DNA of 64,000 nt from Escherichia coli (GTDB lineage Bacteria; Pseudomonadota; Gammaproteobacteria; Enterobacterales; Enterobacteriaceae): the NCBI RefSeq assembly GCF_009931435.1, contig NZ_CP043414.1; one strand, 5' to 3'. This document shows positions 3,001-6,000 of this stretch, piece by piece; the stretch's first letter is position 1; every line of letters starts with the position of its first letter. Position numbers: made by a program.

Positions 3001-6000
3001 CAGGCGCTGGAAGCGATGGGTAAAAAGCATCTGATTGGCAGCCGTCGTGATTGCTTAGTGCCTGCGCCAACCATTGAAGAGATGCGCGAAGCCCGCCGTC
3101 AGAACCGCAATACCCGTCCGGCGTTGACTAAACATACGCCGATGGCGACCCAGCGTCAGACACCTGCTACGGCAAAAAAAGCGTCGTCTACGCCATCTCG
3201 CCCGGTGAATGCTGGCGCGAAGAAACGCCCTAAAGCGGTGGCAGGTCGTTAAGTGAAATGTGCCCGGCAGCAATGATGCTGCCGGGAAATTTATAACCTT
3301 GGTTTATAAGGACTGTTACGAACGTCTAAGCGGTAATGCGCTCTTGCTGTTTCGTCTTTAACTTGCTGAATTTCCGGACGCAGGGCGTCAATATCCTGTT
3401 GCAGTTGATTAATTTTGTTATTCAATGCCTGAATATCATGTTCCAGGTGTTCAATTTTGGCATTGCTGGTACAGCCAGCAAGACACAGCGCCAGCGGAAT
3501 GGATAAGATAAGTTTGTTCATTATGAATTCCAGAACCGTCATTCCGCATACATACGCAAGCAGCGCAGGCAATCAAAATAGTCCTGAGCATCAAGACGCG
3601 TATTGGCTCTGTTAGCGTCGGATTTGGCAGCATAGATTTGTGGGCGTAATGCTTTCATATCCTGCTCAAGCCGGGCGATTTTGGCATTTAATGTTTGCAC
3701 ATTGCTCGCCAGCTGATTGACCTTTTGCTCATTGACGCAGCCACTGAGCAAGCAGGTTGCCAGAACAACAGCCCCCACGGTGAAAATCGTTTTCATATAG
3801 TGTTCCCTTTTATTTATTGTTCCGGCTAATTGTTATTTAATTCAGCTCATTGCTTTAATCTGGCGGCGGTTTTTGCCTCAATCTGCTTAAGTAGGCTGCC
3901 GCTATTCGGGCGGATAAAATCAGCGATTTCCCACTTACCTTCGCGCCGCTGTAAAACCAGTTCTTGCTCTTCATTGTTGCCATTGGTCAGCGTAAAACGA
4001 ACATGAATGCGGGCGGAATCGGCGGTTTTCTCCAGGACACGGATTTCATCAACGCGTGAAAATAGCGACTCTTCGCCAAAACAGATCGGATTGTCGTAAA
4101 TAAATTGCCGTTCTATTTGCATATCTTCATCGGGATTGTTGGCAGTCTTGAAGGTGGTTTTATAGAAGGCATTGACCGCCTGGCGGTAAGAGTCGGAAAC
4201 CACCCACGTCCACGGCCAGCTATAATCAGCAATATGTTCAAAGAGTTCGGCAACAAAGGCTTCCGGCTGTTCTTTTTGCAACGAAGCTATAGCGGCCAGC
4301 GTTTTTTCATTCTCGCTATTAACTGCTTGTAAGACGCTGCCATGATTGCTGACAATATCGTCAATGATCCAACGACCATTTTCCGCCACCATTTTCAGTG
4401 TCTGCGTGGTCTTTTCTTTATCGTCTTTAAAGATACGAAAGCGCACAACGGCATCGGCATGATCGGCGTCAGGTTGGGTTATCGCTACGCTTTCTAACAC
4501 CAGATCGCCAAAATCCTGACAATCACAAACCGGATCATAATCCAGCCAGCCAATATTGCCCGGTAGTGTAAGATTGTCGTTCAGGGTAAGCGCCTGTTGA
4601 ATACGCGCTGAAGTTATCGCCCGCTCTCCGGTTTCACCGAAATAAGGCGTACTGGCATCTGATTTATAGTTCTGATAAATCTGCCGGACTGTTTGTTCTA
4701 CGGTCTGTGAAGGAGGCTGCGCGTGTACGGTAAAACTTGCCAGGGCTGCTAAAAACAGAAGTATTATTTTCATCTGTTTTTCACCTCTCCGTTGCGTTTA
4801 TCCCGGGTGTAGATGAGTTGTTCCTTTAAGAGCTTCCGGCTCTGCATGATGATGTCCTTATATTTGGCATTCCTGAACAAGGAAGAGTAACAATGGGCAG
4901 GACGCGAGGGGAATAAATGATTTCTGAAAAGTCCGGTAGCGGAACATTACCGCCACCGGGAGAATTTGCACGTTAGCCGCCAAACTGGTCAGGATCGGGG
5001 CCGAGGCGTTTGCCCTGGTCGAGTTTGGCAATTTCACCTAGCTCGTCTTTGTCGAGACGGAAATCCCAGACATCAAAGTTTTCGGCAATACGTGAAGGTG
5101 TGACCGATTTCGGGATCACCACCAGGCCGCTATCCAGATGCCAGCGGATAACAATCTGCGCCGGGGTTTTGCCGTATTTATCTGCCAGATCGCGAATGAC
5201 TTTCTGATCGAAAACGCCTTTCCCTCCTTGCGCTAATGGGCTCCAGGATTCGGTCTGGATTTTGTGTGTCGCGTTCCAGGCGTGAAGCTGGCGTTGCTGC
5301 ATCAGCGGGTGGAGTTCAATCTGGTTTATCACCGGCGTCACGCCAGTTTCATCAATCAGGCGTTGCAAGTGATGGATCTGGAAGTTGCACACGCCGATGC
5401 TTTTGATTAAGCCCTCTTTTTGCAATTCGATCATGCCCTTCCATGCTTCGACATAATGGTCGATAGCAGGAACGGGCCAGTGCATTAAGTAAAGGTCGAC
5501 ATAATCAAGCTGGAGTTTTTTCAGGCTGTCGAGCAGGGCTTCGCGGGGGCGCTTGTGGTCGTCGTTCCACAGTTTAGTGGTGATGAACAGTTCTTCTCTG
5601 TTGACTGAGGCATTTTTCAGGGCTTTGCCGACACCTTCTTCGTTCTTATAGGCCGCGGCGGTATCAATCGAGCGATAACCCACGTCTAACGCTTTTTGAA
5701 TGGCGGTGATTACTTCCTCATTACTTGCTTGCCAGACGCCCAGTCCCAACTGGGGCATGACATTGCCATCCTGTAGCTTAATAACGGTTGGATTAGCCAT
5801 ACGTTCCTCCTTTATATGAACTCACCGGAGCAGGCTCCGGTGAGGTGTTGTGAACTTAAGTCTGGACGAAATGCCCGAAAACGAAAGTTTGAGGCGTAAA
5901 AAGCTTAGCGGGCGGCTTCGTATATGCGGCGGCTGACATCCAGCGTAATGTCATGATTTTCGCCCAGTTGGGTCATGCCGTGTTCTTCCAGTTTTTTCAG

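Follow-up and report, generated by a model that had tools for sequence, protein, structure and literature searches.

Braun's lipoprotein (Lpp) is the most abundant protein of Escherichia coli and forms the only covalent link between its outer membrane and cell wall. How this link is tuned is an active question, which takes in both cleavage by LdtF/DpaA and the formation of LppB heterotrimers. To our knowledge, YqhH has so far been the only Lpp paralog without a terminal lysine discussed for E. coli. The 'Lpp box' requires a C-terminal lysine, which becomes covalently attached to meso-diaminopimelic acid (mDAP) of peptidoglycan (PMC12274547; bioRxiv 10.1101/2025.11.13.688167). LppB forms heterotrimers with Lpp/LppA and reduces the crosslinking of Lpp to peptidoglycan, and its authors have suggested that YqhH, a paralog without the terminal lysine, could play a similar role (bioRxiv 10.1101/2025.11.13.688167). 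Here we analyze a 64,000-nucleotide stretch of E. coli DNA (contig NZ_CP043414.1 of assembly GCF_009931435.1), referred to as the window, whose coordinates are used throughout. In the window, yqhH is followed on the minus strand by a second Lpp-like gene, here called LPP2 (Table 1). The comparisons described below indicate that LPP2 is an old gene under selection that was probably lost by most Escherichia and kept in a lineage resembling cryptic clade I.

Both gene products belong to the Lpp family. The original prediction had placed two adjacent minus-strand genes for Lpp-like lipoproteins at 3291–3796, and both open reading frames (ORFs) were found exactly at these limits. Each product carries a lipobox and the heptad core of Lpp, as had been proposed, and each exceeds the gathering cutoff of the Pfam LPP family PF04728 (46.2 bits for YqhH and 42.1 bits for LPP2 with a cutoff of 29.1). 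Both stay below the cutoffs of the NCBIfam models Ala_zip_lipo (38.3 and 36.2 bits, cutoff 43) and PRK15396 (84.1 and 71.4 bits, cutoff 108). The two genes are distinguished by the NCBIfam YqhH equivalog NF007428, to which the upstream gene is matched over positions 1–85 of 85 with 196.9 bits while LPP2 reaches 53.8 bits, under the cutoff of 120. Since it falls short of this cutoff, LPP2 would not represent a second yqhH, which agrees with the earlier statement that only one gene of the pair is yqhH. In RefSeq the LPP2 protein (WP_001037461.1) is named 'LPP leucine zipper domain-containing protein' and its gene is annotated as a coding sequence (CDS) in each of the 18 complete genomes in which it occurs. 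LPP2 is thus a generically annotated gene of a known family and is neither YqhH, nor Braun's lipoprotein proper, nor LppB-like. No discussion of LPP2 was found in the searchable literature. Its identity with the K-12 small-protein gene yqhI was considered and ruled out because the K-12 yqhH-ygiQ gap is too short to hold it (only 42 bp).

The sequences of YqhH and LPP2 contain the features expected of outer membrane lipoproteins that cannot be linked to the cell wall. Both begin with short basic n-regions (MK in YqhH and MNK in LPP2) followed by hydrophobic h-regions and lipoboxes, LSGC at residues 17–20 of YqhH and LAGC at residues 14–17 of LPP2. By the established +2 rule, lipoproteins without Asp at the position after the lipid-modified Cys are directed to the outer membrane via the Lol system. 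As this position is occupied by Val in YqhH and by Thr in LPP2, Lol-dependent sorting to the outer membrane is predicted for both. YqhH ends in RMYAE and LPP2 in SPYKPRL, and neither protein has the C-terminal Lys used by Lpp, as the original prediction had noted. The internal Lys at position −4 of LPP2 is replaced by Ser in the orthologs of Salmonella and of an enteric contig designated L003. Mature LPP2 consists of 60 amino acids with the tail RNSPYKPRL and no Cys besides the lipid-modified one, while YqhH possesses two Cys in its tail. The best solved relatives of LPP2 in the PDB are E. coli Lpp chains (E = 3e-13), with an alignment that is free of gaps from the lipid-modified Cys to residue 57. 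Core positions a and d between residues 7 and 49 are occupied by I/L/V/M or small residues in both YqhH and LPP2, as in Lpp. An AlphaFold2 monomer model of LPP2 shows a single helix to residue 68 followed by a non-helical 8-residue tail, with predicted local distance difference test (pLDDT) values of 88–96 over residues 21–60. A continuous heptad repeat forming a parallel trimer may be expected from this pattern, in which Pro at mature position 33 is an unusual feature.

Orthologs of LPP2 are found in other genera and their comparison indicates purifying selection. The Salmonella enterica ortholog, named on more than 1000 contigs, has 76 amino acids with the tail RNSPFSPRL and is likewise convergent with ygiQ. 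A single blastn high-scoring segment pair (HSP) aligns window positions 962–3522 with Salmonella loci, running from ygiQ through the entire LPP2 gene. Contig L003 has the order dkgA, an unrelated lipoprotein gene, the LPP2 ortholog and ygiQ, and across the contexts compared (Salmonella, L003, Klebsiella sp. and others) ygiQ is the sole neighbor common to LPP2 orthologs. Between the window and Salmonella, no indels occur over 76 codons and the ratio of nonsynonymous to synonymous divergence (dN/dS) is 0.23 at a synonymous divergence (dS) of 0.72, which argues that LPP2 is more than a chance ORF. Comparisons between genera yield dN/dS values of 0.19–0.33 at dS 0.43–0.81, again without indels, and those within Escherichia 0.20 at dS 0.09; for yqhH the ratio is 0.03–0.13. 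The tail motif [RL]NSP[FY]xPRL is conserved among the orthologs. For ygiQ, dS between Escherichia and Salmonella is 1.0–1.15, comparable with that of LPP2, and a dS of 0.7 makes a recent transfer of the Salmonella gene from Escherichia unlikely. By these measures LPP2 is a real gene, conserved and under purifying selection, with a divergence as old as the genera and not the product of recent transfer. A lack of conservation, which would have spoken against the original prediction, is thus not seen.

The boundaries of the locus indicate that the gene was lost from most E. coli genomes. The gap between yqhH and ygiQ measures 42 bp in K-12 and 286 bp in the window. In gene orientation, the K-12 junction reads GAA-TGA joined directly to TAA-AAAAATCCCCGG and the Escherichia albertii junction GAA-TGA joined to TAA-AAATAGCCCCGGCAGC. 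LPP2 itself ends in TTA-TAA-ATTTCCCGGCAGC in the window, in TTA-TAA-ATCTCCCGGCAGC in Salmonella and in TTA-TGA-ATTTCCCGGCAGC in L003. The LPP2 stop codon, a strong hairpin and the end of ygiQ are common to all junctions compared. K-12 and E. albertii lack exactly the 17-nt spacer and the 76 sense codons of LPP2, with the yqhH TGA abutting the LPP2 TAA. Because the junction of LPP2, TAA, hairpin and ygiQ is conserved in the window, Salmonella and L003, the presence of LPP2 would be the ancestral state of the site. The identical junction of K-12 and E. albertii suggests one old and clean deletion of about 244 bp behind both. The notable event at this locus is the reverse of a duplication, namely the loss of LPP2 in E. 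coli sensu stricto and E. albertii.

To place the window among E. coli genomes, the distribution of the LPP2 segment was determined. It is present in 18 of 5426 complete E. coli genomes, in every case at this locus and annotated as a CDS. In the more than 5300 other genomes, megablast homology to the window resumes exactly at 3539, the yqhH stop. Over the first 24 kb of the window, the 18 LPP2 genomes are its closest relatives (98.0–98.5% identity vs at most 97.0% for all others), and 8 of the 18 again top the list over the last 24 kb. One of them, 2013C-4282, is a confirmed strain of Escherichia cryptic clade I (PMC10100065). Given these relationships, the window comes from a clade-I-like lineage in which LPP2 appears to be fixed. 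In a large protein collection, the exact LPP2 protein occurs on hundreds of contigs, and its named sources are Escherichia only (E. coli and Escherichia sp. HH41S, MOD1-EC5189 and 94.0001). Escherichia sp. 94.0001 has the same gene order, yqhG-yqhH-LPP2-ygiQ. A word-indexed protein search returned 3 hits, and an exhaustive HMMER search was needed to recover the Salmonella sequences and other paralogs. A profile scan of contigs with an LPP2-specific alignment gave 73 pattern matches and no relative, and with a broader alignment the matches were mostly genuine lpp loci at 46–49% identity, with no close LPP2 among them.

The gene arrangement points to expression of LPP2 as part of the yqhGH operon. 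yqhG is the first gene of this operon, whose promoter lies upstream of yqhG. In K-12, yqhGH has been handled as an operon with a promoter activated by BglJ-RcsB (PMC3950696). A terminator scan called no terminator-like site in the yqhH-LPP2 spacer, so co-transcription of LPP2 with yqhH is expected. The only Shine-Dalgarno-like element of the spacer is a weak GGAA; the Salmonella and L003 orthologs carry strong elements, AAGGAAG and AGGAGG, ahead of the same MN(K/N) start. An alternative in-frame ATG would overlap the yqhH stop as ATGA, which makes translational coupling possible, and 83-aa gene calls exist in the protein collection. This is probably not the true start, because LPP2 orthologs begin at MNK/MNN. 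Downstream, the hairpin between LPP2 and ygiQ has a predicted RNA folding energy of −22.3 kcal/mol (z = −6.2; none of 200 shuffled sequences was equally stable). This hairpin is also present downstream of the final LPP gene of Salmonella, L003, Escherichia sp. 94.0001 and E. albertii. It has no T-run and was not called by the terminator scan, but likely represents a bidirectional terminator of LPP2 and ygiQ. An Rfam scan returned one chance-level match (Chloroflexus-1, 23 bits vs 181), leaving no RNA-gene explanation.

Combining these observations, we propose, with a probability of about 0.55, that the window contains two real, co-oriented Lpp-family lipoprotein genes, probably co-transcribed from the yqhG promoter, that LPP2 is an old gene retained in this lineage, and that trimers containing such proteins lower tethering. 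LPP2 would be transcribed as the last gene of the operon from the yqhG promoter, which in K-12 is activated by BglJ-RcsB. YqhH and LPP2 would be made with lipoprotein signal peptides, acquire their lipid at the lipobox Cys and reach the outer membrane, where a helix of roughly 50 residues in each would keep the a/d core of the Lpp trimer. Because the terminal Lys of the 'Lpp box' is missing, LdtA/B/C could not attach them and both would exist only as free, unlinked forms. By analogy with LppB, their trimers, alone or mixed with Lpp, would offer fewer or no linkable lysines, and induction of the operon would tune down the tethering of the outer membrane to peptidoglycan. Given the LppB precedent and the core register shared with Lpp, the most economical model is that LPP2 may act as an inducible, unlinkable subunit that forms free trimers or dilutes those of Lpp. 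The proposal starts from direct analysis of gene reality, family membership, Lys absence, orthology, selection and the presence/absence pattern and extends by inference to localization, trimerization, mixing with Lpp and physiological effect.

Several observations weigh against this proposal. Most E. coli lack LPP2, hence any effect it has is dispensable. No GTDB species representative of any Escherichia or Salmonella species carries a close LPP2, and parsimony over species could favor gain by recombination over retention. A promoter scan of positions 3150–5000 called no promoter-like site, and the Shine-Dalgarno element of LPP2 is weak in the window lineage. All lysine-less paralogs share a Pro at mature position 33 (ALRPE) that is not found in Lpp; this Pro and the bulkier V38 and T42 in the alanine-zipper part could disfavor mixing with Lpp and favor homotrimers. 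The conserved PRL tail is left unexplained by a diluting subunit and hints at a function of its own.

Different histories of the pair were also considered. The original prediction had raised a local duplication of an Lpp paralog; the two genes do stand as tandem paralogs, but the idea of a recent event does not hold. That yqhH (or lpp) was recently duplicated in tandem in this strain is extremely unlikely, even though the genes are adjacent, co-oriented and of one family and share the ALRP motif that Lpp lacks. Alignment of both products with Lpp shows each to be at least as close to Lpp as to the other, with amino acid identities of 42% for LPP2 and YqhH, 46% for LPP2 and Lpp and 52% for YqhH and Lpp. 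Over 55 aligned core codons, the DNA of LPP2 and yqhH is 52.7% identical and third codon positions only 32.7%, which means that third positions are saturated. Their best blastn HSP spans 41 nt at out-of-register positions and is not the homologous alignment, their C-terminal tails differ, and LPP2 has a syntenic ortholog in Salmonella at a dS of about 0.7. LPP2 is accordingly an old paralog and not a fresh copy. As to how it came to be in the window, the lineage may have kept the undeleted haplotype or may have regained LPP2 from another Escherichia that had kept it. In the latter case, which we regard as rather unlikely, an Escherichia ancestor would have lost LPP2 and the window lineage would have re-imported yqhH-LPP2-ygiQ from an unsampled relative by homologous recombination. 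The deletion junction shared by E. albertii and E. coli sensu stricto and the absence of LPP2 from species representatives speak for such a regain, as does the 3' end of ygiQ (3001–3252), where identity to K-12 drops to 90% in the last 300 bp compared to a background of about 97%. The divergence of ygiQ from K-12 clearly exceeds that of its surroundings over 1501–3000 as well, with 94–95% identity over 1501–2700 (window vs K-12 dS 0.22, dN/dS 0.008). However, ygiQ is generally diverse; within it, the haplotypes of the window, K-12 and Escherichia sp. 94.0001 lie at about equal distances from one another, none is nearer to E. albertii or Salmonella, and no clear foreign tract is seen. On the side of yqhH and yqhG the flank is diverged to a normal extent, with yqhH, yqhG and dkgA about 97–98% identical to K-12. 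The donor would moreover need the arrangement yqhH-17 nt-LPP2-ygiQ and thus be an Escherichia-like retaining lineage, so that regain differs little from retention.

Alternatives to the proposed role concern the tail and the state of the gene. Homotrimeric LPP2 may have an independent function in which its conserved proline-rich tail, with Arg-Leu/Tyr at the end, recognizes another partner, candidates being a PDZ protease or adaptor of the periplasm and non-covalently bound peptidoglycan. Conservation of NSP[FY]xPRL between genera, purifying selection extending over the tail and related endings on other paralogs of the interval between dkgA and ygiQ (HPPRL, NPPRY and HPPR) would fit such a function, as would Pro33 and the bulkier core at positions 38 and 42 that set these paralogs apart from Lpp. 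We nevertheless give it a minor share of the probability, because the tail is short, YqhH and another paralog of the interval (P0026) have different tails, and with only the convergent ygiQ conserved as a neighbor no adjacent gene suggests a partner. Less probable still is that LPP2 is a silent relic, an intact ORF that has no function in this lineage and is on its way out. Most Escherichia have lost the gene, some Salmonella carry a frameshifted form (P0019, 64 aa), one contig has an in-frame deletion of two heptads (P0003) and the Shine-Dalgarno element in the window lineage is weak. Against decay stand the intact and annotated gene in 18 of 18 complete genomes that hold it, the exact protein on hundreds of contigs and a dN/dS of about 0.2 without indels both within Escherichia and in comparison with Salmonella. 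The variants mentioned are a Salmonella-like contig (L005, 4001–4195) for P0019 and a single Escherichia contig for P0003, in which 14 residues corresponding to the two coiled-coil heptads are missing.

Table 1. Coordinates of yqhH, LPP2 and associated features.
Feature	Position	Strand	Description
yqhH	3539..3796	-	85 aa; signal peptide, lipobox LSGC, 66-aa mature protein, Cys-containing tail
LPP2	3291..3521	-	76 aa; ATG at 3521, stop at 3291; RefSeq WP_001037461.1
yqhH-LPP2 spacer	3522..3538	-	17 nt from yqhH stop to LPP2 start; CGGTTCTGGAATTCATA
Alternative in-frame ATG for LPP2	3540..3542	-	83-aa form; overlaps yqhH TGA as ATGA
Hairpin CCCGGCAGCA-loop-UGCUGCCGGG	3263..3286		GC-rich; between convergent LPP2 and ygiQ
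Segment missing from E. coli sensu stricto and E. albertii	3294..3538		~244 bp; spacer and 76 LPP2 sense codons
yqhG	3847..4773	-	308 aa; YbjP/YqhG, 'Tai3 family'; DUF3828; ORF and RefSeq annotation
ygiQ	1033..3252	+	radical SAM, 739 aa; convergent with LPP genes; ORF and annotation
Extra LPP paralogs	L008/L009 4001-4249 (E. albertii); L006/L007 4001-4252 (Salmonella)		PPRY/PPRL tails

The interval between dkgA and ygiQ contains further lysine-less LPP paralogs in E. albertii, Salmonella, Klebsiella sp. and other enterics, together with variable cargo. In Salmonella, a paralog with the tail CYHPPRL (P0038) is followed by the LPP2 ortholog, and a YqhH-like LPP gene lies further upstream. The E. 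albertii interval comprises yqhG, an unannotated 115-aa ORF, a paralog with the tail ANPPRY (P0024), yqhH and ygiQ, and that of Klebsiella sp. an HIT gene, a paralog with the tail SHPPR (P0031) and ygiQ. An LRP motif is found in most LPP paralogs of the interval. We read these genes as an old paralog cluster shaped by birth-and-death evolution, of which the window has a two-member and K-12 a one-member version. A broader and more speculative view, to which we give little credence at present, is that the interval is a birth-and-death nursery of lysine-less Lpp paralogs acting as inducible 'anti-tethers' in response to envelope-stress signals (BglJ-RcsB). D-I-x-A-L-R-P-E would be the signature of this subfamily, frequently accompanied by a P-(P)-R-L/Y tail at the C-terminus, and its members would enter Lpp trimers or act via their tails, in either case loosening the link between outer membrane and peptidoglycan. 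Each lineage would adjust the number of copies between one and three, with LPP2 discarded by E. coli sensu stricto and kept by cryptic clade I and some Salmonella serovars.

Additional observations were made on the surroundings of the pair. A terminator-like hairpin with a T-run, GTCTTGATGCTCAGGAC TATTTTGATT, lies within the 3' coding region of yqhH (3581–3597, minus strand), in the part encoding the non-Lpp tail; it could be due to chance, or the YqhH tail could have been born by read-through into a former 3' untranslated region. YqhG is named 'YqhG/Tai3 family protein' in newer RefSeq annotation and 'YbjP/YqhG family' in older annotation, and Tai3 denotes a relation to type VI secretion amidase immunity proteins. 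The sharing of an operon by an amidase-immunity-like protein and Lpp-like lipoproteins may be functionally meaningful. In the Salmonella contigs L006/L007, the region upstream of the LPP pair (135–3861) has an Amidohydro_3 gene in place of yqhG, followed by several ORFs without Pfam hits (335/381, 47 and 244 aa) and preceded by the YqhH-like gene, the third of the LPP type. Contig L098 likewise has an ORF of 244 aa that lacks Pfam hits, located beside a DUF3828 gene. The Lys/Arg/Pro-rich C-terminal tail of YgiQ differs between lineages. At the far end of the window, positions 40000–64000 contain sslE, the type II secretion genes gsp and the glc operon. This part is only 96.1–96.6% identical to the nearest complete genomes, again those of the clade-I-like set, whereas other E. 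coli reach about 95%. The collection contains no complete RefSeq E. coli genome identical to the strain of the window.

LPP2 thus represents a second lysine-less Lpp paralog at the yqhH locus, and its conserved tail is its own. The presence of LPP2 varies naturally between very close lineages, namely cryptic clade I versus E. coli sensu stricto, as well as among Salmonella strains. This offers a natural knockout/knock-in pair with which to test for an influence of such paralogs on tethering, on the production of vesicles or on the tolerance of envelope stress. LPP2 also provides a simple sequence marker, as its presence at this locus sets the clade-I-like lineage apart from ordinary E. coli. 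Its practical weight is modest, as a generic RefSeq annotation exists, the family is known and the gene is dispensable for most E. coli.

Compared with described systems, the upstream gene of the window is the same as K-12 yqhH (P65298; NF007428), passing the equivalog with 85 amino acids and a Cys-containing tail. LPP2 is encoded at the same locus as YqhH and in the same orientation, and both proteins have the LPP domain and the ALRP motif and lack a terminal Lys. LPP2 differs in being only 42% identical and shorter (60-aa mature protein), in having no Cys in the tail and in its PRL end. With Braun's lipoprotein (PDB 1EQ7; PRK15396), YqhH and LPP2 have in common the signal peptide, the lipobox and the pattern of the heptad core; identity is 46–52% and mature residues 1–57 align without gaps. 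Outer membrane targeting and a trimeric coiled coil like those of Lpp would be expected for both. In contrast to Lpp, they lack the C-terminal YRK with Lys58, which would preclude a covalent link of the LdtA/B/C type, and they contain Pro at position 33. Lpp is encoded between pykF and ldtE and not between dkgA and ygiQ, and lpp is the gene of the most abundant protein whereas the yqhGH-LPP2 operon is presumably poorly expressed and controlled by H-NS and BglJ-RcsB.

Like LPP2, Salmonella LppB (STM1376) is a minor paralog of Lpp whose gene stands in tandem with that of another family member, and it provides the best experimental precedent for the proposed mechanism. Its gene adjoins lppA, and the protein retains Lys58 and forms disulfides through a penultimate Cys. 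The LppB-type combination of penultimate Cys and terminal Lys is absent from LPP2, which has neither residue, and YqhH has two tail Cys and no Lys. The coiled coil of LppB is about 80–90% like that of Lpp, and LPP2 is far more diverged. The Salmonella protein P0078 is the ortholog of LPP2 and, like it, uncharacterized. It is found in part of Salmonella enterica only. Its upstream partner is P0038 (82–83 aa, tail CYHPPRL) and not YqhH, and its gene is preceded by an 87-nt spacer with a strong Shine-Dalgarno element. P0078 has the same length of 76 amino acids as LPP2, is 71% identical to it and shows the same convergent orientation toward ygiQ, the same stop-hairpin junction and the same arrangement as part of a tandem LPP pair.

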